Translations under genes and position numbers: made by a program
Part shown: piece after piece, positions 8,171-44,032 of the stretch
Position numbering within the stretch: the stretch's first letter is position 1
Layout: the number at the start of each line of letters is the position of its first letter
The notes under the pieces: generated by a model
Told to the model about the DNA's origin: nothing
The model's database searches: none
What the model saw: the letters and a program-made list of their open reading frames with translations, nothing else
Origin: an uncultured Dehalococcoidaceae bacterium
GTDB lineage: Bacteria; Chloroflexota; Dehalococcoidia; Dehalococcoidales; RBG-16-60-22
DNA length: 64,000 bases
Assembly: GCA_964500415.1 (NCBI GenBank)
Contig: CAZCOB010000001.1
Location: 136,267-200,266 of the forward strand
Reading direction: 5' to 3'

Positions 8171-8196
8171 GTATAAACTGCTTACTTTAAAAGTAT

Positions 8197-8237: not shown

Positions 8238-8243
8238 CGATTC

Positions 8244-10470: not shown

Positions 10471-11403
10471 GTGCTGATTGAGGAAGAGTTAGCCGTATTT
10501 TCACCCGAAAAGAATACAATTATAACGGTCGGTGTTTTCGATGGCGTGCACCTGGGCCACAAGCACCTGATTGCCGAATTGCTGCAGGAGGCTGGGCAGA
10601 GGGGCATGCTTTCCGGCGTGGTAACGTTCCGCCAACATCCCGAGGACCTTCTTTCCTCAAAACAAAAACTGCCCTTTTTAACCGATATCCAGACGAGGAT
10701 AAGGCTTCTCCAGAATGAGGGTATTGATATTATCGTGCCTCTATCGTTTAATAAAGAACTGGCTGGACTGGATGCGCATCGGTTTATCGGCCTGTTACAC
10801 AAGCATCTCAGGATGCGTGGTATGGTAATCGGCTCGGATTTCGCTCTCGGCAAGGGGAGGGAAGGCCACACCGATACCCTACGCCGACTCGGCAGGGAGA
10901 TGGATTTCAGCGTCACCGTGGTGCCGCCGCTGCAAATCAATGGAGAGGTAGTCAGCAGCACCGCCATCAGAAAGGCGATGGCTCAGGGAAATATGGAGAG
11001 AGTAAGCCGGCTTACCGGCCGTTACTTCAGCCTGCACGGCAAGGTGGTTACCGGGGCAGGAAGGGGAGGGGGCCTGGGATTTCCTACCGCCAACCTGGAC
11101 GTCAATTCCGGGCAGGCCCTGCCTCCCGATGGTGTTTACGCCGGACTGGCGCATATCGACGGTAAAATATACCAGTCGATGACCAATATCGGCAAGGACC
11201 CGACGTTCGGAGGCACCGAACGTACTGTCGAATCTTACCTCCTCGATTATAGCGGCGACCTTTACGGCCAGGAGCTATCGGTCGATTTCATCGCCAAGCT
11301 CCGCGATGAGAAGATATTCGCCAGCGCCGATGAGCTTAAGAAACAGGTAGCCGAGGATGTCAGGCGGGGGAAGGCGATACTGGAATCTACAGGTGTGAGT
11401 TAG
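10471..11403 (+). CDS. ribF: Bifunctional riboflavin kinase / FMN adenylyltransferase
   Basis: GVFDGVHLGHKHLI and GFPTANL motifs. I prefer GTG 10471 (preceded by GGAGAAGGA) over the track's TTG 10441. Confidence 0.85.
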   Translation: MLIEEELAVFSPEKNTIITVGVFDGVHLGHKHLIAELLQEAGQRGMLSGVVTFRQHPEDLLSSKQKLPFLTDIQTRIRLLQNEGIDIIVPLSFNKELAGLDAHRFIGLLHKHLRMRGMVIGSDFALGKGREGHTDTLRRLGREMDFSVTVVPPLQINGEVVSSTAIRKAMAQGNMERVSRLTGRYFSLHGKVVTGAGRGGGLGFPTANLDVNSGQALPPDGVYAGLAHIDGKIYQSMTNIGKDPTFGGTERTVESYLLDYSGDLYGQELSVDFIAKLRDEKIFASADELKKQVAEDVRRGKAILESTGVS

Positions 11404-11418
11404 CCAGGAGGATTACAG

Positions 11419-12708: not shown

Positions 12709-12726
12709 ACTATACAAGGAGACCAA

Positions 12727-13827: not shown

Positions 13828-13837
13828 GGAAACATAT

Positions 13838-28395: not shown

Positions 28396-28713
28396 CTAGA
28401 TAAGCACGCCCTTTGACAGACTGGCAGTATGTACGTAGATCTCTATTCTGGGTTCGCCTTCGCAGATATCAAGAACGGTAGTTTTAAAGAGGTCTGATTT
28501 TCGATATGCTTCCCAATTCTCCTGCGTGTCGAATATCAACGTAGCACCCTGCCCATATGTTTTAGGGTTCATAATGAAGAGTTTCTCCTTCATTCCGGGA
28601 ATTTTCTTACAGACCTCAATCACCTGGGCAAGATGCTTCTTGACAGTTTCCGTATCAGCCAGCAGCTTCTTCACTTCGTCCTTCACTTCAAACGTACATA
28701 TTACGGCTAACAT
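28396..28713 (-). CDS. Small ABM/Dabb-like hypothetical protein
   Basis: 105 aa ORF, codon usage consistent with neighbours, 20 nt from the next gene. Confidence 0.45.
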   Translation of the reverse strand: MLAVICTFEVKDEVKKLLADTETVKKHLAQVIEVCKKIPGMKEKLFIMNPKTYGQGATLIFDTQENWEAYRKSDLFKTTVLDICEGEPRIEIYVHTASLSKGVLI

Positions 28714-28733
28714 TTTTGCCTCTCTTTTCGTTC

Positions 28734-29492
28734 CTAGGGATTTTCCATCGCCCGTGCCAGTTCGTCTATGTTAGCTTTCTCACGTATCAGGAACTTCTCC
28801 CTGCCCTCGGTGTATGACGGGAGAACCCATTTCATTTCCTTCAGGTTTTGGGTGATAATCGGAATCCAGTTATAAGGGATGGAAATCAGTACCCACCCTT
28901 CATCGAACACCTCTTTCGATTTCATACCGAAGGCCAGCCCGGTAACCGTAAAGTTCACCTTACCGCTCCGGTATGGATAATTGTAAACCCAGGCGCATCC
29001 CAGCACGCCCGTTGTCTTGGATTCCCTCAACACCCCGGTGGAATAGCACATCGCCCTCAGTATAATTTCCGCCTGGCTGGTGTCGGCTAAAATAATCAAG
29101 AGGTCCGGCTCGAATGCCAGTTTGTCTAATGTGGCGAAAGCGACATAGTTCACAGTACCCTTCGGCAGCAGGTTAAGGTATTGATAGAGGTTGCCGTTAG
29201 CCCGCGAATCCTGGAAAATCTCAAGTTTAATCCCCACCTCTCCCGCCTGGGCGAAGGCGGGTAAGTCCTCCATTCCCAGCAGTGCTTTCCCGAAGCAATT
29301 CTCATTCTCTCTCGCGAAGTAAAAGGGGGTTCCCCTCTCCTGGGCTTCTTTAAGCATTTCGCAGAAAGACAGGGTCTTATCAAGCTGCTCAATTCCTTCG
29401 GGTCTGGTGGGTAGGAACTTTACGCCTACGGGCTGCTTTTCAAAATTAAATTTACGGTACACGGACAGGTCTTGTTTTAATGGCATCATCAT
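28734..29492 (-). CDS. DUF169 family protein
   Basis: 252 aa. FCEMLKEAQERG..FY...EN.NCFG and the overall length fit DUF169 (COG2043) as I recall it. Confidence 0.65.
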   Translation of the reverse strand: MMMPLKQDLSVYRKFNFEKQPVGVKFLPTRPEGIEQLDKTLSFCEMLKEAQERGTPFYFARENENCFGKALLGMEDLPAFAQAGEVGIKLEIFQDSRANGNLYQYLNLLPKGTVNYVAFATLDKLAFEPDLLIILADTSQAEIILRAMCYSTGVLRESKTTGVLGCAWVYNYPYRSGKVNFTVTGLAFGMKSKEVFDEGWVLISIPYNWIPIITQNLKEMKWVLPSYTEGREKFLIREKANIDELARAMENP

Positions 29493-29510
29493 ATTACTCT
29501 CCTTACGATT

Positions 29511-31463
29511 TTATAATTTCTTACTCTTCGGGAGGAGGTGCTTGAGGTGAGGAAACTTGTCTGTGGCGTTGGGAAACGTAAGTGCCTGGGTGAAGGTATT
29601 ATTGAAGTCCGGCTCGACGGTCAGTTCCACATACTCTACCCGCCGCGCCATGAGGTCTGCCTCCTTCCTTTTATCTGTATTGAGGAGTGCCATGCGGGCG
29701 CCGTCGCCGGCGGCATTGCCGACCGCATAGACATTTTCCGGGGCGCAGTCGGGGAAAAGTCCGATAACCGCCGCCGACTCTTTGTCGATATAGCTCCCGA
29801 AAGCCCCGGCCAGAATGACTTTATCGATTTTATTAATACCGAGTCGATTCATCATAATCCTAGCGCCGGAATACATGGCGCCCTTGGCAAGCTGTATTGC
29901 CCTGATGTCTTTCTGACAGATGACGATGTCATTGCCGATGGAAGCTTCTTTAGCCCAGGCGATAACGAACTCGGGTTCGTTCCCGTTCTTGCGCAAGCGC
30001 GGTGATTTCATTCGGGTATTGAAACGCCCGCCCCTATCGATAATACCCGCCAGGAACATCTGGGCGGCTGCGTCGAATATTCCTGAGCCGCAGATACCCC
30101 TTGCGCTGATATGTTTGACCTCCGTATTCCATTTCTCGTTGCCGATTACTTTGAACTGTACATCTTTCGTCTCCGGGTCTATTTTCATTTTTTCGATGGC
30201 CCCGGGTGCGGCGCGCATACCGTGCTTTATCTCCGCGCCCTCGAAGGCGGGCCCGGTGGCGCATGATGAAGAAAGCAGCTTCTTCCGATTTCCCAGAATC
30301 AGTTCGCCGTTGGTGCCGATGTCTATAATCAGCAGCATTTCGTCCCGGTTATAGGGCTCTTCGGCGATGAGAACGCCGACATTATCGGCGCCGACAAATC
30401 CCGCTTCTATGGGCAGGACGTGGACGTAAGCGCCGGATGATATTTTTATTCCGAGGTCGCGGGCCTTGATATCCAGGGAGTGATGCAAACCCGGTACGAA
30501 AGGCGCCTTGCCGAGCTGCCGGGGGTCGATATTCAGAAATATGTGGTGCATGCAGGTATTCCCGACAATAGCCGTATCGGTTATATCCGAGCGCTTTATA
30601 CCTACCCTGGCCGCAGCTCGTCCGGCAATCTGGTTGATACATTTTATAATCGCCCGATTCATTCTTTTCAAGCCGTCTTTTTCCTTCACGGTGTAGCTGA
30701 TACGGGACATGACATCCTCGCCGTAAGCGACCTGCGGGTTCATCATGGCATCCGTGGCGAGTACCTCCCCGGTGGTCAAATCACAGAGATAACCTGCCAC
30801 GGTAGTGGTGCCGATATCCACGGCCAGGCCGTAGCCCTTAGAAGTCTGTCCCGGCTCTATATCGACGATTTCTTTTTTATTCCATATCGAGACGGTGACC
30901 TTCCATCTCCCCTCTCGTATCTTATTCTGCAAGTCCAGCATTATCGTATAATCGATGGCAAGGTCGCGCAGTTTGTACTTATTCTTAAGCGCTTCCTGGA
31001 GCCTCTCAAGGTCGCCGGTCGTATCGTGCAGGGTAGCCTTTTGCAACTCTATATAGTATTTCTTAACCGCCGGTTTGAGTTTGATGTCCCGAACAGTGGC
31101 CTCTTTGCGCACCACCTGCCGGCCCTTTCGGCTTTCCTCGGGGACGAAGACAACGATATCGCCGTGAACGTGCGTCTGGCATGCCATCCGGTAGTTATCA
31201 CGTAGCTGCTTCTTGCTCAAGAATTTCTTGTTGGCTTCGCCGGTGTTGGAAACAGATGATATTGTGGAATTTATGCCGTATTTGGCAAAGTATCCTTCCT
31301 CGATTCTCACCTTGCACTTGCCGCAGGCACCTTTGCCTCCGCAAACGCTCTCGATATCGGCGCCCAAAAGCCGGGATGCCTCCAGTATGGTGATGCCTTT
31401 GTTGACTTTGCCCCGCAACCCGGAGGGCTGGAATACGACTGTATAATTTTGGTTATTCATCAT
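29511..31463 (-). CDS. 2Fe-2S ferredoxin / ASKHA-ATPase fusion (RACE/AcsV-like, DUF4445)
   Basis: 650 aa. N-terminal plant-type ferredoxin (CGGKGACGKCKV...ACQT), then ASKHA phosphate motifs (LAVDIGTTT, IDIGTNGE). Confidence 0.8.
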   Translation of the reverse strand: MMNNQNYTVVFQPSGLRGKVNKGITILEASRLLGADIESVCGGKGACGKCKVRIEEGYFAKYGINSTISSVSNTGEANKKFLSKKQLRDNYRMACQTHVHGDIVVFVPEESRKGRQVVRKEATVRDIKLKPAVKKYYIELQKATLHDTTGDLERLQEALKNKYKLRDLAIDYTIMLDLQNKIREGRWKVTVSIWNKKEIVDIEPGQTSKGYGLAVDIGTTTVAGYLCDLTTGEVLATDAMMNPQVAYGEDVMSRISYTVKEKDGLKRMNRAIIKCINQIAGRAAARVGIKRSDITDTAIVGNTCMHHIFLNIDPRQLGKAPFVPGLHHSLDIKARDLGIKISSGAYVHVLPIEAGFVGADNVGVLIAEEPYNRDEMLLIIDIGTNGELILGNRKKLLSSSCATGPAFEGAEIKHGMRAAPGAIEKMKIDPETKDVQFKVIGNEKWNTEVKHISARGICGSGIFDAAAQMFLAGIIDRGGRFNTRMKSPRLRKNGNEPEFVIAWAKEASIGNDIVICQKDIRAIQLAKGAMYSGARIMMNRLGINKIDKVILAGAFGSYIDKESAAVIGLFPDCAPENVYAVGNAAGDGARMALLNTDKRKEADLMARRVEYVELTVEPDFNNTFTQALTFPNATDKFPHLKHLLPKSKKL

Positions 31464-31566
31464 TCACAATATAACATGTAGTGACATATTAATACAAAGC
31501 TGAAGAATACTTTGTAAAGATTAATGAAAAAGAAAAGTAAAAATGAAACGAGTCACAGGTGGAAAT

Positions 31567-32691
31567 TTAATATTGTGCTGCCAGCTTTTCCAGGTGATAA
31601 CCGACACCGCCGAAACTGAACTCGCTGGCTCTGGCTTTCTTGGTGTAAAAGTGGAGGATATGGTCTTCCGTGAAGCCGATGGCGCCGTGCACCTGGTGGG
31701 CCGAGTGCATAACGCGACGACAGGCCTGACTCACCCAGGCTTTGGCTATGGCGGCTTCCCTAGCCGCCGGTAATCCCTCGTTGATACGCCAGGCAGCCTG
31801 GTAGGTGGCGAATGTCGAGCCGTCGACATCGATGAGCATATCGGCGCAGCGGTGCTGTATGCTCTGGAAAGCCCCGATAGGATGACCGAAGGCAATTCTC
31901 TCTTTGGCATAGTCCAGCGTCATGTTCATGGCCTGCCGGGCCAGCCCGACCATCTCCGCGCACCTGGCGACACTGGCCTTTTGTAGTATCTTTTCAACGC
32001 ACGGCCAGCCCCTATCTACTCCTCCCAGAACACTGTCGGCGGAGACTTTGACATCATCGAAAATAACCTCAGCCTGTTTATCGCCGGAAATAGTGTTAAG
32101 AGGTTTACAATTTAAGCCGGGGGTATTTTTATCGACTATAAAAAGCGATATGCCTTTTTCAGAGCCGCCCTCTTCGGCGGTCCTGGCGACGCAAATCAGG
32201 TAATCGGCGGCGCCGGCATCCGTCACGAAGAGTTTGGTTCCGTTGATTATAAAGTCGCTCCCCTGCCGTGTCGCTTTTACCTGTACAGCCTCAGGAGTAT
32301 ATTTCCCCGATGCTTCCACTAAGGCCAGCGTCATGATGGACTTGCCTTCGGCGATGCCGGGTAAATATTTCTGTTTCTGCTCGCCGCTGCCGGCTTCGAT
32401 AATCGTCGAGGCCCCCAGCACGATATTGGAGAAAAACGGACTCAAAAAACAGGCGCTTCCCATCTCCTCCAGCACCACGATTAAGTCCAAGAAGTCGCCC
32501 ACGCCGCCGTACTCCTCCGGGATGGAAAGCCCGTGCAGGTTCATCTCCGCCATTTTCCGCCACAGTTCCGGCGTATAGCCCTTCTCATCGGCGGCCATCG
32601 CCCGCAGGACTTTATCGGAGTATTCATTGGCCAGGAAGTCCCTGGCCAGTGTCTGCATCATTTCCTGCTGCTCGTCGAGAGCAAAGTCCAC
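31567..32691 (-). CDS. Acyl-CoA dehydrogenase family protein (no Glu at the canonical YEGT position)
   Basis: 374 aa. ACAD pattern; C-terminus EFSFGGVGYHLEKLA. Confidence 0.8.
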   Translation of the reverse strand: MDFALDEQQEMMQTLARDFLANEYSDKVLRAMAADEKGYTPELWRKMAEMNLHGLSIPEEYGGVGDFLDLIVVLEEMGSACFLSPFFSNIVLGASTIIEAGSGEQKQKYLPGIAEGKSIMTLALVEASGKYTPEAVQVKATRQGSDFIINGTKLFVTDAGAADYLICVARTAEEGGSEKGISLFIVDKNTPGLNCKPLNTISGDKQAEVIFDDVKVSADSVLGGVDRGWPCVEKILQKASVARCAEMVGLARQAMNMTLDYAKERIAFGHPIGAFQSIQHRCADMLIDVDGSTFATYQAAWRINEGLPAAREAAIAKAWVSQACRRVMHSAHQVHGAIGFTEDHILHFYTKKARASEFSFGGVGYHLEKLAAQY

Positions 32692-32720
32692 TATTGTCCT
32701 CCGTGTAAATCTTTCCAGTA

Positions 32721-33899
32721 TCAGCGTAAACGTGGCAGGCCCAGTCCACGCTGGGCGATAACGTCCTTGTCTATCTCGGACGTGCCCTGTTCCATGCTGT
32801 GACCGAAGGAGCGCAGGTAGCAGGAGGGTATCCTGCCATACATGGGCGCCAGCTCCTCGTCCTCGCCAAGCTGGCTGTACTGTCCCGTCAGCTCCATGCC
32901 GAACTCGGTTACCCGCTGGAGAAGCTCGAAGCTGACCAACTTGCTCATAGCCGATTCAGCGTTGGGCACCATGCCCCGACTCTGCATCCAGGTGACGCGG
33001 TAATGATGCAGGCGGGCTATTTCGCATTCCGCCCGCAACTCGGCCAGACGATTTTCCATAACGGGGTCGAGTAAATCTTTTTTCCGCGCGTACTCCGCCA
33101 GGTCTGCTACCAGGGTTTCCGCTATAGCGTAAACCGGGTCGGTCGTGCGTTCGTAGTCCAGCAAAGACATGACCACGTAAAAGCCCTTATTCAGGCCGCC
33201 CACGATGTTTTCCCTGGGTATGCGCACGTCATCGAAGAAGACTTCATTGAAATCGTGGTGACCGGCCATATTGATGACGGGATTGACCGTTATCCCCGGC
33301 GTCTTCATGTCCAGCAGGAAAAACGTAATCCCGCGGTAGTTCGGGGTGGCCTCGCGGTCGGTCCTGGTTACCAGGGCATTCCAGTCGGCGAAATGACCGT
33401 TGGTCGTCCATATCTTCTGTCCATTGACGACGAAGCAGTCGTCTTCTTCTCTGGCGAATACCTCGATGGAAGCCAGGTCGGAGCCGTGTCCCGGCTCGCT
33501 GAGGGTCTCGCACCAGATGACTTTTCCGGAAGCTATGCCTGGCAGGTGTTTCTTTTTCTGCTCTTCGGTGCCTTTCAGCATAAGCGCCGGAGCCACGATG
33601 CCCGCGCCGATGGAGTCGTATCCCGGCGAGTGGTAGCGCGATAGCTCTTCCCTGAGAATAAGCCTGTGAAAAGGCGATTTTCCCTGGCCGCCGTATTCCT
33701 CAGGCCAGTGGATGGATATCCACCCCTTTTCTCCCAGCTTTTTCGCCATCTCCCGGTGGACTTTTATCCAGTCGGACTGGGCGGACATATCGAAGAAGGT
33801 CAGCCGCTTTTCCCGGTATTCCCGCGGTACTTCCTTTTCCAGGAAAGCGGCAACTTCCCTGCGGAAGGCCTCTTCTTCGGGAGTTAATCTAAAATCCAC
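32721..33899 (-). CDS. Acyl-CoA dehydrogenase family protein
   Basis: 392 aa. ACAD pattern (VNGQKIWTTN); C-terminal SMEQGTSEIDKDVIA retains the catalytic-base-like Glu. Confidence 0.85.
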   Translation of the reverse strand: MDFRLTPEEEAFRREVAAFLEKEVPREYREKRLTFFDMSAQSDWIKVHREMAKKLGEKGWISIHWPEEYGGQGKSPFHRLILREELSRYHSPGYDSIGAGIVAPALMLKGTEEQKKKHLPGIASGKVIWCETLSEPGHGSDLASIEVFAREEDDCFVVNGQKIWTTNGHFADWNALVTRTDREATPNYRGITFFLLDMKTPGITVNPVINMAGHHDFNEVFFDDVRIPRENIVGGLNKGFYVVMSLLDYERTTDPVYAIAETLVADLAEYARKKDLLDPVMENRLAELRAECEIARLHHYRVTWMQSRGMVPNAESAMSKLVSFELLQRVTEFGMELTGQYSQLGEDEELAPMYGRIPSCYLRSFGHSMEQGTSEIDKDVIAQRGLGLPRLR

Positions 33900-33911
33900 G
33901 ATATATATCTC

Positions 33912-35900
33912 TTACTTGCCGGTAAACTTGGGCGTGCGGCGGTAGTTCATGGATGTCAGTCCTTCGTTCAGGTCTTTTGTCATGGCGATATCGCCGGAGA
34001 CTGCCGCTTCGAGGTATAATGCCGTCCGCTGGTCGGCCTGGGCGCCGTAGTAAAGCAGTCCCTTGGCCAGCTTCTGGGCCAGGGGGGCGCCGTTGGCCAG
34101 TTTTACGGCCGTTTCATCCACCAGGTCATCGAACTTGTCCGGCTCGGCGACGAAGTTCACGATTCCCCAGTCGAGGGCTTTCTCGGCCATGACGGGGTCG
34201 GCCAGCAATATTATCTCTTTAGCACGCGCCCAGCCTATTAACCGCCCCAGACGCTGCGTGGCGCCTGCACCCGGCAAGAGTCCCAGGGTAATTTCAGGCA
34301 GACGCAGCTGTGCCCTGGTGTTCATAATCCTGATATCGCAGGCCAGGGCGAGCTCCAGTCCGCCGCCCATCGCCGCGCCGTTGATAGCGGCGATTACCGG
34401 CTTGGGGTAGGTCTCGATTCGGGTGAATACTTCGTGGGGGGCTTCGCTGAATTTGAAGGCGTCGTCCACCTGGCCGGTCGCGAACGCCGACACATCGGCG
34501 CCGCCGCAGAAATTGGCGCCAGCCCCGGTGATAATTATGCACCGCACGTTTTCGTCATTCTCAAGCTCGATGAGCGCTTTGTTTATCTCCGTCATGAAAT
34601 CGGCATTGAAAGCGTTGGCCCGGTTGGGCCGATTCAGTATTAACCTGGCGATTTTCTTTTCCCGGTTGATATCAAGCTTGACGAATTCATATTCCCCCGG
34701 CCCGTAGGTATAAAATCCCTCGCCGGTCTTCCGTCCCAGTTTCCCCTGTTTCACGAGTTTGGTTATGACGGAGGAGGCCTTGTACCTGTCTTCCTCATTG
34801 TACTTTTTATAAAGCCGATTCAACTCGTCAAGTATCTTATCCAGTCCGGTGCTATCGGCCATGCGGAGGATGCCGCGCGGGTAGTTCAGTCCCAGGAGCA
34901 CGGCGGTGTCTATCTCGTCGCGGGTGGTGGCATCCATTTCGATGAGCTTGGCGGCTTCGTTGACAGCCGTCGCCAGCACCCTGATGGGGTCGAAGTCCAC
35001 GCCGGCGTTCATGGGGATTTCGTTGGTCTTGCCTTCCGGCCAGTCGTAGTAGCCTTTACCGGTTTTTCTTCCGTAGTTACCGGCCTTGAACAATTTTTCC
35101 AGTATGGGAGCGGGACCGTAGCTCTTGCCCATTGTCTCGCCGAAGTATTCCATGACGTGAAACTGCGTATCGATAGAGCCACCACCGAGCGCGTCCTGTA
35201 GCTCCAGCATACCCATCGGCATCCCCAGCTTGTACTTAATCGCCGAATCTACTTCAAAGGCATTCTTGGCTTCACCCTGAGACAGCGCCCAGTCGGCCTC
35301 GTTAGACATGTTACAGAAGATTCGGTTGGCAACGAACCCCGGGACGTCCTTGACGTGAACGACTGCCCGTCCCATCTTGATAGCGACTTTCTCGGCTATA
35401 GCAATGGCTTCTTCGCTGGTGTTCTCGCCGTGGACGATTTCCAGCAGGGTCATGCGACTGGGCGGATTGAAATAGTGCGTGCCCACGACCATCTCCGGTC
35501 GTTTGCCGGCCGTGGACATCTCGGCGATGCTCAGCGACGACGTGTTGGTGGCGAAAACGCAGTCGGCCGGGCACAGTGCCGTAACCTCTTTCAGGACGCT
35601 CTTTTTCAGGTCCATTATCTCGGGCACCGCTTCGATGATGATATTGGCGTCCTTGACCGCCTCTTTAAGGTCCACGAGAAAGGTCATCCGGCTCATGGCG
35701 TCCTTCTTGGCTTCTTCCGTATAACGGCCCCGGCTGATTCTCCTGTCGTAGTTGCTTTCTATGAGCTGGCGTCCCTTTTCCAGGAATTTTTCCTCGATGT
35801 CCCGGATTTTTACGTCGTAACCGGCCTCGGCGGCCAGGGCGCCAATCTGAGCCCCCATAAGACCCGCTCCGAGCACGGTAACATTCTTAATCTCTTTCAT
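33912..35900 (-). CDS. Fused 3-hydroxyacyl-CoA dehydrogenase (N-terminal) / enoyl-CoA hydratase (C-terminal)
   Basis: 662 aa. VLGAGLMGAQIG Rossmann motif at the N-terminus; crotonase motifs (ITGAG.NFCGGADV, AAINGAAMGGGLELALACD) at the C-terminus. Confidence 0.85.
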   Translation of the reverse strand: MKEIKNVTVLGAGLMGAQIGALAAEAGYDVKIRDIEEKFLEKGRQLIESNYDRRISRGRYTEEAKKDAMSRMTFLVDLKEAVKDANIIIEAVPEIMDLKKSVLKEVTALCPADCVFATNTSSLSIAEMSTAGKRPEMVVGTHYFNPPSRMTLLEIVHGENTSEEAIAIAEKVAIKMGRAVVHVKDVPGFVANRIFCNMSNEADWALSQGEAKNAFEVDSAIKYKLGMPMGMLELQDALGGGSIDTQFHVMEYFGETMGKSYGPAPILEKLFKAGNYGRKTGKGYYDWPEGKTNEIPMNAGVDFDPIRVLATAVNEAAKLIEMDATTRDEIDTAVLLGLNYPRGILRMADSTGLDKILDELNRLYKKYNEEDRYKASSVITKLVKQGKLGRKTGEGFYTYGPGEYEFVKLDINREKKIARLILNRPNRANAFNADFMTEINKALIELENDENVRCIIITGAGANFCGGADVSAFATGQVDDAFKFSEAPHEVFTRIETYPKPVIAAINGAAMGGGLELALACDIRIMNTRAQLRLPEITLGLLPGAGATQRLGRLIGWARAKEIILLADPVMAEKALDWGIVNFVAEPDKFDDLVDETAVKLANGAPLAQKLAKGLLYYGAQADQRTALYLEAAVSGDIAMTKDLNEGLTSMNYRRTPKFTGK

Positions 35901-35956
35901 GACTTACAGCCCCTTTCCAGGTTATTCGCTCATGTTGAGCCTGTCGAACCATGAGG

Positions 35957-35985
35957 GCTCACCCTTCGACAAGCTCAGGGTGAGC
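35957..35985. repeat. Intergenic hairpin repeat (CCTTCGACAAGCTCAGGG family)
   Basis: GCTCACCC (35957-64) / GGGTGAGC (35978-85) around the loop TTCGACAAGCTCA; a diverged copy lies at 58701-58721. Confidence 0.55.
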
Positions 35986-36002
35986 GACATCAGATTTTTC
36001 CC

Positions 36003-36515
36003 TTATTTCACCGGCTCGAAGGCGTAGTAAACCCGGTCGCGTATCTTGGTCTCTCTCTTGACCTCAATCGGGTGGGAAGGTACATCAAAGACCACGAACT
36101 TGACCTCGTCTCCATCTTTGAGCTCGCCCTCTTTGCAGTTGATGATGCGTGCCAGCAGGTGCTTTAAAGGGGCCCCCTCGCCGAAGTTCAGCCAGGCCAT
36201 GATTATCGGGGGCGGGAAGCCGATGGGTGCGCCGGCCTGCGTCTCCGTGAACGTGACCACTTTGGCCCGCTGCGGCAGCTCTACCCACTCCAGCTCGTCG
36301 GACCAGCACTTGGGGCATATCACGCCGGGAGGAAAAGCTATGTTACCGCATTTTTTACACTTGGTCGTGGTAAATTTGCCGGCTTTCAGATTTTCGTAAA
36401 ACGGATGAATTCGATTGAACTCCTCGCATTCTAACGGCCACATATCCATTTCCGCTATATAGGTGCCGTCCAGGGCGGGCGTTCCGACTACATTTACTTT
36501 ATCTAAATCAGCCAT
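36003..36515 (-). CDS. DUF35 Zn-ribbon/OB-fold protein (thiolase partner)
   Basis: 170 aa. C-x2-C...C-x2-C (CKKCGNIAFPPGVICPKC); lies directly downstream of the SCP-x-type thiolase. Confidence 0.8.
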   Translation of the reverse strand: MADLDKVNVVGTPALDGTYIAEMDMWPLECEEFNRIHPFYENLKAGKFTTTKCKKCGNIAFPPGVICPKCWSDELEWVELPQRAKVVTFTETQAGAPIGFPPPIIMAWLNFGEGAPLKHLLARIINCKEGELKDGDEVKFVVFDVPSHPIEVKRETKIRDRVYYAFEPVK

Positions 36516-36548
36516 TTCTTCTCTCCTTATGTAAAACTGTCATGTACT

Positions 36549-37742
36549 CTAGTCAACCGGCTCTTTGCCGTAGATAACCACGGTATGCTGGGCGCAGGTG
36601 CCGCTCAGGTTATGCGCCAGGCCGAAAGCGGCGTCTTTTACCTGGTGGATGGCCCTGCCCTGAAGCTGCTTGCAGATTTCCAGCGACTGCCGGGCGCCGG
36701 AGGCGCCGAAGGGGTGCCCGTAAACGAGCAGGCCGCCATCGGTATTGGTCGGAATCTCGCCGTCAATGTTGATGGCGCCGGAGGTGACGAAGTCGCCGCC
36801 CTCACCCTTCTTACAGAAACCGAGCTCTTCAAGCTCGATAATCTCGGAGATGGTGAAGCAGTCGTGCGTCTGGGCAACATCGATATCCTTGGGGGTGAGT
36901 TTGGCGTTCTTGAAAGCCACCTCGCCGGCGATTTTCAGGTGTGTCCATTCGGCGAGTGTTTCCCCCGGCCACCCGGCCGACATGCTGTGTGAAGCGTGCT
37001 GCCCCGTGCCGCGTACGTATACCATGGGTCTGTCGGTCAGTTCTTTAGCTCTCTCTTCCGAGGCGATGACAACCGCCGAAGCCCCGTCGGAAAGCGGGCA
37101 GCAGTCATACAGCCCGAAGGGTTCGGCTATAAGTCTGGCTTCCAGCGCATCCTTCATGGTTAAAGTCCTTCCTGCGAAATGTCCCTTGGTATGACCGTCG
37201 CCATAGGTATAGTTGGTGACGGAAACGGCGGCCATCTCTTCCTTGGTAGTTCCGTAGCGCTTCATGTGCATCTTGGCAATCATGGCGAAGAAAGGCGGCG
37301 GCACTCCCAGGCCCATAGCGGAGTCCCAGTCGTGGTCGTTGACCATCAATTGCGTGTAGTTGGTCTCCCATCGCTGGGGCATATAGACCTTCTCCGCGCC
37401 GGTTACCAGGACTACCTCGGCGATGCCGCTCTCCACCAGCCCCTTGGCGACGATGATAGCGGAGTTGGAGCCGGCGCACAGCGTGTCCAGGCGAATGCAG
37501 ATAGAGGTCGGTGTCAGTCCGAGCCGGTGCACTACCAGCGGGGCGGTATTCAATGCCGCTGAATGTCTCCCCGCCATGGTCGTGGCGATGATAAGGCCGT
37601 CTATATCCGCGGGTTTTAGTGCCGGAATGTCATCGGAGCAGGCTTTCATCGCCTCCTGAAGCATGTCGAAAAACGTTGCCTGCCTGACCCCGAATTTGCT
37701 CGTTCCTCCGCCGACGATTACGGCTTTCTTTTTCTCTGCCAT
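36549..37742 (-). CDS. Thiolase-fold protein, SCP-x / lipid-transfer type
   Basis: 397 aa. Active-site Cys region (LDTLCAGSNSA), C-terminal GHPFGASGARQ and NLSGTCAQH. Confidence 0.85.
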   Translation of the reverse strand: MAEKKKAVIVGGGTSKFGVRQATFFDMLQEAMKACSDDIPALKPADIDGLIIATTMAGRHSAALNTAPLVVHRLGLTPTSICIRLDTLCAGSNSAIIVAKGLVESGIAEVVLVTGAEKVYMPQRWETNYTQLMVNDHDWDSAMGLGVPPPFFAMIAKMHMKRYGTTKEEMAAVSVTNYTYGDGHTKGHFAGRTLTMKDALEARLIAEPFGLYDCCPLSDGASAVVIASEERAKELTDRPMVYVRGTGQHASHSMSAGWPGETLAEWTHLKIAGEVAFKNAKLTPKDIDVAQTHDCFTISEIIELEELGFCKKGEGGDFVTSGAINIDGEIPTNTDGGLLVYGHPFGASGARQSLEICKQLQGRAIHQVKDAAFGLAHNLSGTCAQHTVVIYGKEPVD

Positions 37743-38006
37743 ATGAACATCTCCTTTGCTTTAACTTTAACTTATATAGTCACGGAATTTATGGTTTGTT
37801 ACCGGTGAAAAAATGACAACTGCAACCACCGAAATCAACTGGCCATATTTCCCTCATATATCTTATCAGATATTATAGCCCAGCGTAAAGTAGTTCAATA
37901 TGTTATCATTTTTCCTGCCTGTGTCGAATCACACCATTAACTGTTTATTACACAAATTTCCCATCACTGAAAACTGTGAAAATATAAAGAGCCAGCCTTT
38001 CCCTAT

Positions 38007-38035
38007 TTGACACACCTATTGATGAACCATTAATA
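38007..38035 (+). promoter_or_regulatory. Putative promoter of the molybdoenzyme operon
   Basis: TTGACA (38007-12), 17-nt spacer, TTAATA (38030-35); within a 341-bp AT-rich divergent intergenic region. Confidence 0.4.
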
Positions 38036-38083
38036 TTTTATTGTCGATTGCTGTATTTTTCGTTTTTAGAAAGGAGATGACGC

Positions 38084-40321
38084 ATGGCGAAAGGTAAAGA
38101 GAATAAAGTAATTTCTACCATGTGGTCGGCCGGTTGCGGTTCGCACGGAGGCTGCGGCTGCGAGATATACGTCCAGGATGGCAAGGTGGTCAGGGTAGAG
38201 GGGGATAAAAATCACCCTTTTAACCTGGGGAGGCTTTGCCCCAAAGGCCTGGCTATACCGCAGTATATGTACCACCCCGACCGCGTTACTCATCCGTTGA
38301 AGAGGGTGGGTGAGAGGGGCGAGGGGAAGTGGGAGCGCATTACCTGGGATGAAGCCTTCGATACTATCGAGAAGAAATTCAAGGACATCCGCGTCAATTA
38401 CGGCGCGGAATCGGTCATATTCTGCCAGGGCACGGGCCGTGATATCGGCGGTCCTATCACCTTTTTGATGTACGCTTACGGAAGCCCGAACTGGGTGCAA
38501 GTGGGACTGGCCGGTCATGCCTGCTACACTCCCCGACTTGGTGCCATGTTCGCCACCCAGGGTTCTTATTGTGTCGCTGACTGTTCTCAGTTCCTGGAGA
38601 AGCGTTATGATTCACCGGAGTGGACGCCGCCCAAGTACATTCTTCTCTGGGCGCAGAATCCGGCCGCCGGCTGTCACGACGGCTTCTTCGGTCACTGGAT
38701 TATCGACTGCATGAGGCGGGGCTCCAAGCTAATTGTTATCGACCCATGCCATACCTGGTTTACCAGTCGCGCCGATGTCCACCTCCAGAATCGACCCGGC
38801 ACCGACGGCGCCATAGCCCTGGGTATGCTCAATGTTATCATCAACGAAGGCATTTACGATAAAGCGTTCGTCGAAAAGTGGTGCTACGGCTTTGACGAAC
38901 TTAAAGAGCGCGTTCAGGAATACACTCCGGAAAAGGTGGAGAAAATCACCTGGGTTCCCGCCGACCTTCTCAGGGAAGCCGCCCGGCTCTACGCCAGGAA
39001 TAAGCCGTCGGCTATCCAGTGGGGAGAGCCGGTGGACGCCATGCCGGCGGGCAGCGTGGTAGCCCAGGCCATCAACCAGCTCTGGGCCATCACCGGCAAT
39101 ATCGATAACCCAGGCGGCAACGTCATCGCCAAGAACTCGCACGGCGTTACCACCTATCCCTTCAGCTCCGCCGAGCTTACCAAACTCTATGGCGAGGACC
39201 TCGTCAAGAAGCTCAACGAGAAAAGAATCGGTGCCAACGATTACCCCATGATTAAGGGCTTCAGGGGATGGGTACAGCCCGACGTACTCATCGAGCAACT
39301 GGAAACAGATAAACCGTATAAGGTCAGGGCTGCCTGGATACAGACATCCAATATTATCGGCGGTCAGGCGGCTGACCCCCGGCGGCATTACGAGGCCATG
39401 AAAAAATTAGATTTCGTTGTCGTGGTTGACCTCTTTCAGAATCCCACCAGCATGGCTCTGGCCGATATCTTCCTCCCCGCCGCCACTATCTGCGAGAAGG
39501 AAAGCTTCCGCTCCTGGTGGCAGCCCCTCGGTGTTTCCGTCAGGGCTGTCGACGGTGTGGATGAGAGCCGGTCCGACTGGGAAATCAATCTGGAGATGGC
39601 CAAGCGGCTGGCCACCAATCCCCTTAAATACAACACGGTCAGAGAGCTTATCGACGACCGCCTGAAGGACGGAAATACCAACTTTGAGAAACTCAAGGCC
39701 AAAGGTTGCTGGGAGTACCCGCCGGAAGGACACCCCAGCCGCCCCTACTACCGCTACGAGAGAGGCCTCTTGCGCGGCGACGGCCAGCCCGGCTTCGATA
39801 CCCCCACCGGCAAGGTGGAGCTGTACTCCACCCGGTATGAGGAGTGGGGCCTCGACCCGCTGCCCTATTACGAGGAGCCGAAGGAAAGCCCCGTGGCCAC
39901 CCCCGATGTCTGTAAGAAATATCCCCTGATACTGACGACGGGTCGCCGCTCGCCGGTCTTCTTCCATGCGGAACATCGCATGATTCCCTGGCTGCGTGAG
40001 ATAGACCCCGACCCCGAGTGCGAAATCAATGATAAGACGGCTGAAGAGCTCGGCGTCAGCAACGGCGAGTGGGTCTATATCGAGAATGCGCACGGCAAGA
40101 TTAAAATGAAGGCCAAGGTCACCCCCACCGCTCATCCCATGGTCGTTACCGCGCCACACGGCTGGTGGCTGCCGGAGACCGATGGAAAAGCGCCCAACCT
40201 GTTCAGCACCTGGGAGTATAACATTAATAACCTTACCACCATGGGCAACCAGGGCAAGTCCGGCTTCGGCGGGACGGATTACCGCTCCGGTCTCTGCCGC
40301 ATTACCAAAATTAAAGATTGA
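38084..40321 (+). CDS. Mo/W bis-pyranopterin (DMSO reductase family) catalytic subunit, no Tat signal
   Basis: 745 aa. N-terminal FeS motif CGSHGGCGCEIYV...GRLCPKG; MopB core and C-terminal barrel (ELGVSNGEWVYIEN). N-terminus MAKGKENKVIS has no twin-arginine motif. Confidence 0.85.
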   Translation: MAKGKENKVISTMWSAGCGSHGGCGCEIYVQDGKVVRVEGDKNHPFNLGRLCPKGLAIPQYMYHPDRVTHPLKRVGERGEGKWERITWDEAFDTIEKKFKDIRVNYGAESVIFCQGTGRDIGGPITFLMYAYGSPNWVQVGLAGHACYTPRLGAMFATQGSYCVADCSQFLEKRYDSPEWTPPKYILLWAQNPAAGCHDGFFGHWIIDCMRRGSKLIVIDPCHTWFTSRADVHLQNRPGTDGAIALGMLNVIINEGIYDKAFVEKWCYGFDELKERVQEYTPEKVEKITWVPADLLREAARLYARNKPSAIQWGEPVDAMPAGSVVAQAINQLWAITGNIDNPGGNVIAKNSHGVTTYPFSSAELTKLYGEDLVKKLNEKRIGANDYPMIKGFRGWVQPDVLIEQLETDKPYKVRAAWIQTSNIIGGQAADPRRHYEAMKKLDFVVVVDLFQNPTSMALADIFLPAATICEKESFRSWWQPLGVSVRAVDGVDESRSDWEINLEMAKRLATNPLKYNTVRELIDDRLKDGNTNFEKLKAKGCWEYPPEGHPSRPYYRYERGLLRGDGQPGFDTPTGKVELYSTRYEEWGLDPLPYYEEPKESPVATPDVCKKYPLILTTGRRSPVFFHAEHRMIPWLREIDPDPECEINDKTAEELGVSNGEWVYIENAHGKIKMKAKVTPTAHPMVVTAPHGWWLPETDGKAPNLFSTWEYNINNLTTMGNQGKSGFGGTDYRSGLCRITKIKD

Positions 40322-40332
40322 AAGGAGTAGTC

Positions 40333-40662
40333 ATGCCCCGAAACGGCTTACTTATCGAATACGAATACTGCACCGGATGCCACGCCTGTGAGGTCGCCTG
40401 CAAGCAGGAGCATAACTTCTCCGACGGTATGTGCGGCATCAGGGTGGACGAACTGGTCACGGTGGGACCGGATAAGGTTCACGTGGATTTCATTCCCGTC
40501 ACTACCCGGTTCTGCGACCTCTGTGCGGAGAGGGTAAAAGGCGGACAATCGCCCGCCTGCGTCAAGCACTGCCAGGCCATCTGTATGATGTACGGCCCGG
40601 TGACCGAGCTGGCTAAAGAAATGGAGAAAAAACCGAGGTCGCTTATCTTCGCCCCGAAATAG
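40333..40662 (+). CDS. Small 2x[4Fe-4S] ferredoxin-type subunit
   Basis: 109 aa from ATG 40333 (AAGGAG 7 nt upstream). CTGCHACEVAC plus CDLC...ACVKHC. Confidence 0.8.
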   Translation: MPRNGLLIEYEYCTGCHACEVACKQEHNFSDGMCGIRVDELVTVGPDKVHVDFIPVTTRFCDLCAERVKGGQSPACVKHCQAICMMYGPVTELAKEMEKKPRSLIFAPK

Positions 40663-40668
40663 CTTGAT

Positions 40669-40868
40669 GTCATTCCAGCGAAACTTGTCCCGTACTTGAT
40701 ACGGGAGCTGGAATCCAGCAGCCCCAACCTGTCATTCTGAGCCGAAGCCCTGAGCGGAGTGAAGGAGCGGTGAAGAATCCAGTATCCCCAACCTGTCATT
40801 CTGAGCAAAGCGAAGAATCTCGGGGTGGGGCAGGTACTCTGGATTCTCGGGTCAAGAACGGGAATGAC
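40669..40868. repeat. Cluster of four GTCATTCY...GAATCY palindromic (REP/MITE-like) elements
   Basis: Copies at 40669-40716, 40731-40780 and 40795-40820 (forward) and 40841-40868 (inverted). CCCCAACCTGTCATTCTGAGC occurs twice. Confidence 0.7.
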
Positions 40869-40885
40869 ATTTTTCTAATGTTACA

Positions 40886-41890
40886 CTACATCGGATTTGC
40901 GGCGGGACTCTGGTATCCCGCCAGCAAGCCTCTGGGCACCTGCTGCATCAACTCGTCTATCGTCCAGGGGCCTTCTCCGAATTTCGTCAAGTTCCTGGTT
41001 ATTTCCGGCTCCGAGTAAAGTCCGATGCCGTTTCCTCCCAGGCTGAAAACCGAGCCGCTGATACCCGCGGCGGCATCGGAAGCCAGGTAGCAGATAAAGG
41101 GCGTTATGTAGTCGGGAGTGGGAGTCATTTCCACCAGCATGCCGGGCCCTTCCATTTTAAATATGAAGGGGCGGTCTTCCTCAGTCACGGTCAGGGGGTA
41201 GGTGTCCAGTTCGTATGAAGCCCTCGTCTTCGCCCTGGGCGAAAAAGCGTTGCAGGTTATCCCGTAATCGTGCATTTCTATGGCTACCGCCTTGGTCAAT
41301 CCTACTACCCCGGCATTGGCCACGCAATATTCGGCATGCCTGATAACGTCTCCGTTAAAAGCCCTAGACGTGCAGTTGATGATACGCCCCCACCTCTGCT
41401 TTATCATGTGCGGCAGGGCGTGGCGCATCGTGTTGAAGTAGCCTTTAGGCTTGGTGCGGGTAACGTGCTCCCAGAGCTCTTCCGTTAGCTTCTCAGCCCG
41501 GCTGAAGCCGAAGGTCCCGGCCACGTTCACCAGGATATCTATCTTCCCGAAGTTATCAATAGCGCTTTGTATCAGTTTTTCCGCAACATCAAATTTTGAA
41601 ATATCGCCGAAGCAGGGCACGGCCTTACCGCCCGTTTCCCTGATTGTCTGTGCGGTGGTCTCCGCATCGCCGCTGATGGCGGCGGTCTCCCTCTCGAACC
41701 ACTCCCTTTTTTCTCTATCGAGCGATTTTACCTGCTCATCCGTTAAAATGGCATGGCCGGTAGAGCCGGGCTGGCGGTTATTGGTGACTATACTGGCGCC
41801 TTCCTGAGCCAGCCCGATGGCGATAGCCCTGCCGATTCCCTGTCCCGAGCCGGTCACCACGGCGACTCTGTCCTTTAAAATGTCTCCCAT
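40886..41890 (-). CDS. SDR-family oxidoreductase with C-terminal extension
   Basis: 334 aa. TGSGQGIGRA cofactor motif; active-site region reads YCVANAG (Y-x3-N rather than Y-x3-K). Confidence 0.8.
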   Translation of the reverse strand: MGDILKDRVAVVTGSGQGIGRAIAIGLAQEGASIVTNNRQPGSTGHAILTDEQVKSLDREKREWFERETAAISGDAETTAQTIRETGGKAVPCFGDISKFDVAEKLIQSAIDNFGKIDILVNVAGTFGFSRAEKLTEELWEHVTRTKPKGYFNTMRHALPHMIKQRWGRIINCTSRAFNGDVIRHAEYCVANAGVVGLTKAVAIEMHDYGITCNAFSPRAKTRASYELDTYPLTVTEEDRPFIFKMEGPGMLVEMTPTPDYITPFICYLASDAAAGISGSVFSLGGNGIGLYSEPEITRNLTKFGEGPWTIDELMQQVPRGLLAGYQSPAANPM

Positions 41891-42004: not shown

Positions 42005-44032
42005 TTAGAAAGTAATCAGCGTGATAAAGACAGGACCGAAAATCACGGCCACCTTGCCCACCAGCTTGATAAGGATGTTCAGGGAAGGCCCGGCCGTGTC
42101 TTTGAAGGGGTCGCCGACCGTATCGCCGACGACCGCCGCCTTGTGGGCATCGCTGCCTTTTCCTCCCAAGGCGCCCGCCTCGATGTATTTCTTGGCATTG
42201 TCCCAGGCGCCGCCCGCATTGGCCATCATCACCGCCATCAGGAATCCCGTCACTAATGCGCCGATGAGCAGGCCTGCCACGGCTTTCGGACCCAGGGTGA
42301 AGCCGAGTATAAGCGGTACGGCAATTACCAGGATGCCCGGGATTATCATGGATTTGAGGGCAACCTTGGTGGCAATGTCGACGCAGCTTACATAGTCCGG
42401 CTTAACGCCTTCCTTGCCTTCCAGGAGTCCCTTGATTTCACGGAACTGCCGTCTTACCTCGTTGACGATGGCGAAGCCGCCGGTGCTGACGCCCCTCATG
42501 GCCAGCGCGCTGAAGATAAAAGTGAGCATACCTCCTATCATAATACCGGATATCACGCCGACGTTGGTCAGGCTGGCGATACCACCCTCCAGGTGGACGA
42601 CCTGGAAATATGTAGCCAGCCAGGCCAGCGACGCCAGCGCCGCCGAGGCGATGGCGAAACCCTTGCCGAGGGCCGCCGTGGTGTTGCCGACGGCGTCCAG
42701 GGCTTCGCAGCGTTCCCTGACATCTTTGCCCAGTCCGGCCATCTCGGCAATGCCCGCCGAGTTGTCGGCAATGGGCCCGTAGCAGTCCATGGCCAGCAGC
42801 ATGCCCAGGTTAATCAGCATGCCCATGGCGGCGATAGCGATGCCCAGCAACCCGCCGAAGAGGTAGGCGAGGACGGTAGCTATCACCACCAGGATAACGG
42901 GCAGCACTGTGCTCAGCATTCCCGTAGCCAGGCCGTCGATGATGGTAACGGCGGCCCCGCTCTCCGCCGACTTGGCAATCCTCTTTGCCGGAGGACGCTC
43001 GGCGGAGGTAAAGTACTCCGTCGCCAGTGATATCAGGAAACCGGCCACCAGACCCGATATCAATGCCCAGAAAAGGTCGAGTTTATCTGTAAATCCCCTG
43101 ATGATAAAGAAGCTGGCCACTATCATGAGGATATTACTGACATAGACACCGGTATTCATCGTGGCGTGTGCCCTGGCCACCTGCTTCTCGAAATCGGCGT
43201 CTTTTATATCCTTCGGCCTGACCGATAGTGCCCCGATAATCGATACTACAATGCCCGCCGCCGCCAGCATTAAAGGCAGGAACATGCCGTCGGACGTCCC
43301 CAGGGCGAGAACCCCGAGCACCATCGAAGCGGCTATCGCGGAAACGTATGACTCGTAAAGGTCGGAGCCCATGCCGGCCACGTCGCCGACATTATCGCCG
43401 ACATTATCTGCAATCACCGCCGGATTACGCGGGTCGTCTTCGGGGATGCCGGCTTCCACTTTACCTACGAGGTCGGCGCCTACATCGGCGCTCTTGGTGA
43501 AAATACCGCCTCCGGCCCTTAAAAACAGTGCTACCGACGACGCTCCAAAGGCGAAACCGAGCCATACGTGGCTATCTTCCCAGATAAAGGAGATAATAGC
43601 CAGACCCAGCAGCCCCAGCCCGACCACGCAGAAGCCCATTACAGCCCCGCTGGAGAAGGCGATTTTAAGTCCTTTCGCCCAGCTGTTGATGGCCGCGTGG
43701 GCCGTCCTGACATTCGCCTTGGTCGCGATATTCATGCCCAGCCAGCCGGACAGCGCCGAGGTGACGGTACCGGCCAGGTAGGCTACGGCAACATAAGGTT
43801 TGGGGTCGATGAAAACAGCCAGTACGATGAAAACAACCACCGTGAATACCGTCAGCGTCAGGAACTCGCGACGTAAAAAGGCCATGGCTCCCTGCCGTAT
43901 GGCATAAGATATAGATTTCATCCTCTGGTTGCCTTCGCTCTCACGTAATATCGTGAATGCCAGATAGACGACGAAGGCCAGCCCCAGAACAGCCCCCACT
44001 ATGACGAGCAGTTTCATGACCCATTCTTCCAT
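42005..44032 (-). CDS. hppA: Membrane-integral pyrophosphatase, K+-dependent signature
   Basis: 675 aa polytopic. [23 protein letters not shown], and [15 protein letters not shown] (Ala/Gly pair). Confidence 0.9.

Follow-up and report, generated by a model that had tools for sequence, protein, structure and literature searches.

Results

A two-subunit molybdenum or tungsten enzyme without a membrane anchor

The DNA analysed here is a 64,000-nucleotide stretch, hereafter the window, from an uncultured Dehalococcoidaceae bacterium of the GTDB lineage RBG-16-60-22 (assembly GCA_964500415.1, contig CAZCOB010000001.1, positions 136,267 to 200,266), and all coordinates below are those of the window. 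Its subject is a plus-strand gene pair that encodes the catalytic subunit of a Mo or W enzyme carrying a bis-pyranopterin guanine dinucleotide cofactor (bis-PGD) and a small iron-sulfur protein. A previous sequence-only reading of positions 38084-40662 described the catalytic subunit and overlooked the 109-residue Fe-S subunit that lies within the same span. The pair and its translation signal are as follows.

38070..38076, plus strand: ribosome-binding site AAAGGAG, 7 nt ahead of the ATG at 38084 (read off the sequence)
38084..40321, plus strand: Mo/W bis-PGD catalytic subunit of the DMSO reductase superfamily, 745 aa (Pfam domains, alignments, tree)
40333..40662, plus strand: small electron-transfer subunit with two [4Fe-4S] motifs, 109 aa (open reading frame (ORF), motif, alignment)

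Three Pfam domains, Molybdop_Fe4S4, Molybdopterin and Molydop_binding, score above their gathering thresholds in the catalytic subunit and, together with a cysteine metal ligand, assign it to the Mo/W bis-PGD enzymes. The ligand is Cys147 within GHACYTPR, whose counterpart in acetylene hydratase, by alignment, is the tungsten-binding Cys141; this settles on the same residue that had been proposed earlier as the cysteine of GHACYTP at about residue 146. The JGI label "anaerobic selenocysteine-containing dehydrogenase" had hinted at selenocysteine, a reading that we discarded, since that label is a generic one, the ORF has no interruption and Cys occupies the ligand position. The protein begins with MAKGKENKVISTMWSAGCGSHGGC and has no RR motif, and its Fe-S domain starts at about residue 14 (in MAKGKENKVISTMWSAGCGSH), leaving no space for a Tat leader, the absence of which was assessed by eye on the sequence. 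Pfam annotation identified no membrane-anchor gene near the catalytic subunit, the neighbours being a short-chain dehydrogenase/reductase (SDR) and a housekeeping pyrophosphatase (PPase). The initial description of a soluble, cytoplasmic and non-respiratory bis-PGD enzyme of 745 residues, with neither a twin-arginine leader nor an anchor gene, was therefore correct.

Every curated NCBIfam model falls well under its cut-off for the catalytic subunit: the best, Fdh-alpha (TIGR01591), reaches 310 bits against 666, PhsA 288 against 694 and TtrA 57 against 1750. Among solved structures acetylene hydratase (PDB 2e7z) is the top match (E = 1.4e-94), followed by PsrA (238 bits) and FdhF, a ranking that agrees with the earlier characterization of the enzyme as acetylene hydratase-like rather than Psr-, Phs- or Fdh-like.

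The small subunit carries the motifs CxxCxxCxxxC and CxxC-x11-CxxxC. Its mechanically called ORF begins with a TTG at 40318 that overlaps the large-subunit stop codon; the likelier start is the ATG at 40333, which lies 6 nt behind an AAAGGAG (40321-40327) and yields a 109-residue product of the same length as the partner proteins in related loci. The protein aligns with residues 1-61 and 115-148 of PsrB, keeping Cys groups I and IV with the middle gone, and is therefore a reduced, two-[4Fe-4S] member of the DmsB/PsrB family. To follow the pair across genomes we scanned 185,579 species-representative genomes with two family-specific peptide patterns, which gave 395 confirmed relatives, and fetched 80 loci; orthologues were taken at 78% identity or above and more distant relatives below 78%. 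A small-subunit homologue lies immediately downstream of the large-subunit gene in all 44 orthologous loci and in 30 of 35 loci below the threshold. Because its partner is a ferredoxin-like two-cluster subunit, the catalytic subunit would be a redox enzyme and not a hydratase.

Relationship to catechol dehydroxylases and acetylene hydratase

Within the superfamily the catechol dehydroxylases are closest to acetylene hydratase (PMC7028382), and those of Gordonibacter are smaller enzymes that have no Tat signal and occur with a small 4Fe-4S partner protein (eLife 2020, PMC7028382; JACS 2025, PMC11887054). We transcribed the sequences of Cldh, Dodh, Dadh and acetylene hydratase from the gapped Figure 6 source alignment of the 2020 eLife paper (PMC7028382) and compared them with the query locally by blastp. 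The query matches three Gordonibacter-type sequences over its full length, about 740 residues: Cldh at 42% identity (576 bits), Dodh at 41% (583 bits) and a third sequence, whose header was not seen, at 42.5% (611 bits). Cldh and Dodh are themselves 45% identical to each other. The match to acetylene hydratase is weaker, at 32% identity (319 bits), and that to Dadh is split into two partial segments at 31-34%.

In a neighbour-joining tree of 23 sequences (Kimura distance, 300 bootstraps, rooted on a Tat-bearing Psr-like sequence) the query family is monophyletic in 99.7% of bootstraps and sister to the Gordonibacter-type enzymes in 94%; it groups with acetylene hydratase in 1%. The sequence-only reading had named clustering with respiratory Psr- or Ttr-type reductases, a Tat-signal partner or a membrane subunit as grounds for abandoning its view, and we found none of these. 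Its separation of the enzyme from the respiratory reductases thus stands, with the qualification that the enzyme belongs beside the Gordonibacter-type dehydroxylases and not beside acetylene hydratase. Of the features of the Gordonibacter type, the locus shows clustering with Cldh and Dodh among the 23 sequences, no Tat signal, a catalytic subunit smaller than the Eggerthella type (745 aa), an Fe-S partner and no anchor.

Forty-three family-invariant positions are common to all three Gordonibacter-type sequences and missing from two acetylene hydratase-type sequences, and about 23 of them are also found in Dadh, including GTGR116-119, C147-x-x-P150-R151 and H628-x-E630. An N-terminus of the type W-S-x-G-x-G-C-H-x-G-C, without the first Cys, is likewise common to the query family and the Gordonibacter type. 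In acetylene hydratase (2e7z) the active site comprises Asp13, next to Cys12, and six residues that form a hydrophobic ring, Ile14, Ile113, Ile142, Trp179, Trp293 and Trp472. By alignment, Asp13 corresponds to His21 of the query, Ile14 to Gly22, Ile142 to Tyr148 and Trp179 to His198, and Ile113 is deleted, so that of the six ring residues only Trp293 and Trp472 survive, the other four being replaced or lost. An N-terminus of the query family's kind also occurs in an environmental sequence from Desulfobacula toluolica (TWSAGPGCH-GGCG) in the Figure 7 alignment of the eLife paper, and the wider group had therefore already been flagged there as "putative dehydroxylases".

Three conserved cysteines in the N-terminal domain

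The N-terminal motif had been written as C-x5-C-x-C...C and called unusual. Unusual it is, but the pattern itself is not conserved. The FS0 domain of the catalytic subunit contains Cys18, His21, Cys24 and Cys52, followed by Lys54. Among 120 homologues there are two motif types, W-S-x-G-C-G-S-H-G-G-C, that of the query, and W-S-x-G-P/A-G-C-H-G-G-C; some members thus have Cys18 and others a Cys at position 20 (GCGSHGGC versus GPGCHGGC). Most of the 120 homologues have Ala or Val in place of Cys26, which was rejected as a cluster ligand on that ground. In a 16-sequence alignment W14, H21, G22, G23, C24 and C52 are invariant and Cys18 varies. The alignments firmly indicate three conserved cysteines, not four, in this domain.

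Alignment with reference enzymes puts the invariant Trp14 at the canonical first Cys, with the canonical second Cys kept or shifted two residues upstream, and puts His21 at the Asp13 position of acetylene hydratase, in an alignment that is ambiguous around a three-residue insertion. The first Cys of the canonical CxxCxxxC...C motif is gone in the whole lineage, the characterized Cldh and Dodh included (window 38084-38240, residues 14-52). Across the whole Gordonibacter-type lineage an invariant Trp stands at the missing first-Cys site and an invariant His at the site of the catalytic Asp of acetylene hydratase. The missing fourth Cys poses a small, testable bioinorganic question, for which a [3Fe-4S] cluster, His ligation or another ligand is conceivable.

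The divergent promoter region

The enzyme gene is transcribed divergently from a thiolase gene across 341 bp of AT-rich DNA, as first described; GC content is 34.6% there and 53.4% window-wide. A promoter candidate lies within it.

38007..38036, plus strand: sigma-70-type promoter TTGACA-18-TAATAT (in the other register TTGACA-17-TTAATA), about 50 nt 5' of the start (10/12 in a scan)

In 22 of 27 orthologous intergenic regions (23/28 with the window) a match to TTGAC[AT]-N15-19-TAnnnT lies 67-93 nt 5' of the start codon, with variable spacer sequence. This phylogenetic footprint makes it a real promoter candidate and upholds the TTGACA-17-TTAATA element proposed before. The inverted repeat ATATCT-n4-AGATAT, proposed alongside it, does exist at 37858-37873 but is found in none of the 27 orthologous regions. 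It was accordingly dropped as an operator and is, on this comparison, most likely a chance occurrence.

Neighbouring genes and their conservation

The neighbours in the window, annotated with Pfam and NCBIfam, include a minus-strand string of acyl-CoA genes on the far side of the promoter region and a convergent gene behind the small subunit.

36549..37742, minus strand: SCP-x/archaeal-type thiolase, 397 aa, first gene of the string (Pfam Thiolase_C_1, NF004720)
36003..36515, minus strand: DUF35/ChsH2-type thiolase partner with zinc ribbon and OB-fold (Pfam)
33912..35900, minus strand: 3-hydroxyacyl-CoA dehydrogenase/enoyl-CoA hydratase fusion, HADH-ECH (Pfam)
31567..33899, minus strand: two acyl-CoA dehydrogenases (ACADs), one PimC-like and one PimD-like, both below curated cut-offs (Pfam, NCBIfam)
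40886..41890, minus strand: convergent SDR, 334 aa, 3' of the small subunit (Pfam)

We counted neighbours by tblastn with queries from the window, Neomoorella and a Chloroflexia contig, using loci with enough flank as the denominator. Among orthologous loci the divergent thiolase and the DUF35 gene each occur in 28 of 32, HADH-ECH in 24 of 30, the ACADs in 23 of 27 (they are absent in L001), the corrinoid reductive activator RACo in 18 of 23, the convergent SDR in 28 of 36 and the PPase in 9 of 27. Relatives below 78% identity have, where they have one at all, a thiolase of a different subfamily. The linkage to acyl-CoA genes proposed in the sequence-only reading is thus kept within the Dehalococcoidales but not conserved outside that order, and such synteny alone is no proof of a functional link, because the genomes are all related and housekeeping genes are also partly syntenic.

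The window's SDR gave no qualifying match to the phloroglucinol reductase (PGR) of Moorella, and related SDRs at four orthologous loci are only 25-29% identical; as judged by these comparisons it is not PGR-like. No phloroglucinol genes lie next to the enzyme among the scanned ORFs of the window. A major facilitator superfamily (MFS) transporter or a transcription factor, a typical though non-defining feature of dehydroxylase loci, was not found in the Pfam-scanned ORFs between about 17.8 and 44 kb, a few small ORFs being left out. Genes for molybdenum cofactor biosynthesis or for Mo/W transport were likewise absent from the Pfam-scanned ORFs of the 64-kb window, of which 44-51 kb was judged by synteny with L001 only.

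The closest homologues of the catalytic subunit (80-94% identity) come from metagenome-assembled genomes (MAGs) of Dehalococcoidales, Dehalococcoidia or Chloroflexota from aquifer sediment, peat, fen, cold seep and soil, and several MAGs hold two or three copies. The Dehalococcoidales paralogues L008, L018 and L042 have no thiolase neighbour; L018 (87%; 476-9045) and L042 (80%; 31-14578) lie near AthL-like large subunits, a TRAP transporter, hydantoinase A/B and aldehyde:ferredoxin oxidoreductase. Directly upstream of the L018 paralogue is an integrase-core fragment, which suggests a transposed copy.

Relatives at 61-72% identity sit repeatedly inside pyrogallol-phloroglucinol clusters. About 8 of 17 fully flanked distant relatives have, no more than 10 kb away, homologues of the transhydroxylase subunits AthL and BthL (58-72% identity to the Neomoorella pair), and so do L064, L075 and L087. 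Often nearby as well are PGR, TAL (BKACE), DPGC (cyclase), a 3-hydroxyacyl dehydrogenase, a CoA transferase and a classical thiolase; the genes of the phloroglucinol pathway have been defined in Clostridium scatologenes (PMC10470551). The relatives that adjoin AthL/BthL, PGR, TAL and DPGC genes belong to Neomoorella, Clostridiales PH28_bin88, Desulfitobacteriia, Sporomusaceae, Syntrophaceae, Acidobacteriota and Desulfobacterota. In one Desulfitobacteriia and one Sporomusaceae MAG (L082 and L085) the genes run PGR, Mo enzyme, Fe-S subunit, AthL, BthL, and in L087 two AthL copies lie directly downstream in an O-methyltransferase context. Another relative has an OYE-type reductase, a cyclase, an IclR gene and a xanthine-dehydrogenase-type enzyme around it.

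Several observations stand somewhat apart from the enzyme. In a Chloroflexia MAG (L004:6043-12598 and L005) the start codon of the homologue overlaps the 3' end of a hydantoinase B gene, in the order HydA, HydB, Mo enzyme, 118-aa Fe-S subunit, RidA and TatD-like, and RidA-family genes recur beside the relatives L064, L074, L075, L086 and L087. RACo (29511-31463) and a DUF169 protein (28734-29492) belong to the same minus-strand string as the acyl-CoA genes (28396-37742, gaps of 12-103 bp); for a protein that activates corrinoids, genes of the beta-oxidation type are unusual company. An element of about 204 bp (40667-40870) sits between the gene for the Fe-S subunit and that for the convergent SDR, and its ends are 10-nt terminal inverted repeats (ATGTCATTCC and GGAATGACAT) around two 32-nt direct repeats 64 nt apart. 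Its 19-mer CCAACCTGTCATTCTGAGC occurs twice in the window against an expectation of 0, the 14-nt core of that 19-mer, CTGTCATTCTGAGC, occurs in none of 87 related loci, and the element may be a small mobile or repetitive insertion. The window also contains two genes for membrane-bound pyrophosphatases of the H+/Na+-PPase family, at 6032-8170 (plus strand) and 42005-44032 (minus strand), and a STAND/AAA-type NTPase gene (nSTAND1, NACHT-like) at 57104-58327 (plus strand) between cdsA and trp operon genes.

Discussion

Altogether, the two-subunit architecture without an anchor, the position in the tree, the Cys147 ligand and the residues shared with dehydroxylases but not with acetylene hydratase are established. 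These results lead us to propose, with a probability of roughly 0.55, that the gene pair encodes a soluble, heterodimeric, cytoplasmic Mo (or W) reductase of the Gordonibacter-type lineage that removes hydroxyl groups from catechol- or pyrogallol-type phenols. The enzyme would probably be a polyphenol-modifying reductase and not a hydratase that feeds fatty-acid oxidation. Because its relatives are embedded in pyrogallol/phloroglucinol clusters, the substrate class suggested by the comparison is that of polyhydroxybenzenes or phenolic acids.

We envision a scenario in which electrons from a low-potential cytoplasmic donor enter at the two [4Fe-4S] clusters that the small subunit carries and pass by way of the N-terminal three-Cys cluster and Lys54 to the pterin and the metal. 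The reduced metal would then remove a hydroxyl oxygen of a phenol of the catechol or pyrogallol type, releasing it as water, as in Cldh, Dodh and Hcdh, with the invariant His21, at the Asp13 position of acetylene hydratase, perhaps serving as a proton relay. The adjacent operon of thiolase, DUF35, HADH-ECH and ACAD genes may use up the products or provide reducing equivalents, a link that is syntenic only.

Several points weigh against this proposal. The clade placement comes from a neighbour-joining tree of only 23 sequences, and an identity of 41-42% does not fix the reaction, given that the non-redox acetylene hydratase belongs to the same wider branch. Arg506, which determines activity in Dadh, is an invariant Gln328 in the query family. 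The scanned ORFs beside the enzyme in the window include no phloroglucinol, transporter or regulator genes. Finally, the direction of catalysis, reductive dehydroxylation or oxidative hydroxylation, is not readable from the sequence.

Among known systems the nearest is the Gordonibacter type (Cldh, A0A369M2I8; Dodh, A0A369LV65; and Gp Hcdh), which shares with the query a two-subunit cytoplasmic build on a bis-molybdopterin guanine dinucleotide cofactor (bis-MGD) and an adjacent small Fe-S gene, together with the His after the second Cys position (C-H-x-G-C), C-x-x-P-R, GTGR, H-x-E and an insertion past the ligand. The query family differs in being a sister clade of its own, from Chloroflexota and further environmental phyla, and the subgroup of the query has its Cys moved by two residues (GCGSH for GPGCH). 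The extra "LCxRC" Cys is missing in the query. No MFS transporter or regulator adjoins it; its neighbours in this lineage are acyl-CoA genes, and those of its relatives are AthL/BthL and phloroglucinol genes. The Eggerthella type (Dadh, Cadh and Hcdh) belongs to the same wider branch and has about 23 of the signature residues (C-x-x-P-R, GTGR, H-x-E), but these enzymes carry a Tat leader, form a membrane-anchored three-subunit complex and reach about 1000 aa with large insertions.

Three further systems help to frame the comparison. Acetylene hydratase of Pelobacter acetylenicus is, like the query, cytoplasmic, with a Cys metal ligand, an N-terminal Fe-S domain and the pair Trp293 and Trp472, but it acts as a monomer in a non-redox reaction, has no electron-transfer subunit and holds a canonical four-Cys cluster. 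The AthL/BthL transhydroxylase of Pelobacter acidigallici is also a cytoplasmic bis-MGD enzyme, its substrates are polyhydroxybenzenes and in many genomes its genes adjoin relatives of the query. However, identity between AthL and the query is only 22-27%, the first domain of AthL is another one (PF21423), BthL is about 275 aa long with a carboxypeptidase-regulatory-like domain, and the reaction is a net non-redox hydroxyl transfer. The PsrABC and PhsABC complexes resemble the query in that PsrA is the second-best solved structure (238 bits) and the first and last Cys groups of PsrB align with the small subunit. Unlike the query, they are exported by Tat, have a four-cluster PsrB and are held by a PsrC membrane anchor, and the query locus has none of these.

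An enzyme of the same lineage could instead run in the oxidative direction or transfer hydroxyl groups, for example by hydroxylating phloroglucinol, pyrogallol or resorcinol with water to give 1,2,3,5-tetrahydroxybenzene for AthL/BthL, with electrons leaving through the small subunit. We consider this unlikely, though it is the main rival; in its favour are the gene order in L082 and L085, the two AthL copies directly 3' in L087 and the recurrence of AthL/BthL within 10 kb of the distant relatives. The Pelobacter transhydroxylase requires tetrahydroxybenzene as a co-substrate, a requirement that such an enzyme would satisfy, and we know of no source for that co-substrate. On the other side, the characterized members of the nearest clade are all reductive dehydroxylases. 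The known phenol hydroxylases of the superfamily, resorcinol hydroxylase and AthL-like enzymes, stand on a different branch; identity to AthL is low, and AthL is absent from the window.

A further alternative, built on the sequence-only reading, is a cytoplasmic hydratase or hydroxylase acting first on a substrate of non-aromatic or hydrocarbon-like nature, whose product the divergent thiolase/HADH-ECH/ACAD operon would then degrade. It is now improbable, and we leave it a small weight because the divergent arrangement is well conserved in the lineage, at 28 of 32 orthologous loci against 9 of 27 for the downstream PPase. The SCP-x thiolase, DUF35 and ACAD pair do resemble modules for bulky acyl-CoA substrates (BbsA/BbsB matches below cut-offs; ACADs of PimC/PimD type). 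Yet no CoA ligase or transferase is adjacent, and the linkage is limited to one order, in which housekeeping genes are also partly conserved, and is missing both from relatives in other phyla and from the paralogues L008, L018 and L042. The catalytic residues of acetylene hydratase are not conserved, Asp13 among them, and an electron-transfer subunit is present. Together with the reductive character of the nearest relatives, these findings do not bear out a role as the initial hydroxylase or hydratase of a beta-oxidation pathway.

That the protein is acetylene hydratase itself, or else a formate dehydrogenase or a respiratory-type reductase of polysulfide, thiosulfate or tetrathionate in which only the signal peptide is missing, is very improbable and largely refuted: the structure ranking (acetylene hydratase, then PsrA and FdhF) and the top NCBIfam models (Fdh-alpha and PhsA) favour it, but the former identity fails on the loss of Asp13 and of four of six pocket residues (Ile14, Ile113, Ile142 and Trp179), the conserved Fe-S partner gene and the 1% bootstrap grouping, and the latter on NCBIfam scores far under cut-off, the lack of a Tat leader and of a PsrC-type anchor, and a partner with two clusters.

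Returning to the proposed polyphenol dehydroxylase, part of this picture is familiar. Descriptions of catechol dehydroxylases of the Gordonibacter type date back to 2020, and peat is already known to hold environmental "CDH" homologues, which are widely expressed there and were termed "cryptic" (PMC12203004). The characterized catechol dehydroxylases are confined to gut Coriobacteriia. What is new here is a sister clade centred on Dehalococcoidales that has the same two-subunit cytoplasmic build and is a near-core gene in Dehalococcoidales of sediment and peat, the shifted Cys in its cluster motif, and its recurrent embedding in pyrogallol/phloroglucinol clusters. In the searchable literature we found no description of this clade or of its link to AthL.

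These findings also raise a broader conjecture, which we hold to be improbable as a whole. In non-dehalogenating, uncultured Dehalococcoidales of sediment, aquifer and peat, a cytoplasmic catechol/pyrogallol dehydroxylase could serve as an electron sink for the co-located acyl-CoA oxidation, so that dehydroxylation of humic matter and polyphenols would be the counterpart to organohalide reduction in their cultured relatives, and the enzyme would work through an unusual three-Cys cluster, possibly His-assisted or [3Fe-4S], common to all Gordonibacter-type enzymes.

If the enzyme does dehydroxylate polyphenols, it would bear on the anaerobic turnover of carbon derived from tannins, lignin and humic matter (the "enzyme latch"), and its relatives would be candidates for unassigned steps around the transhydroxylase.

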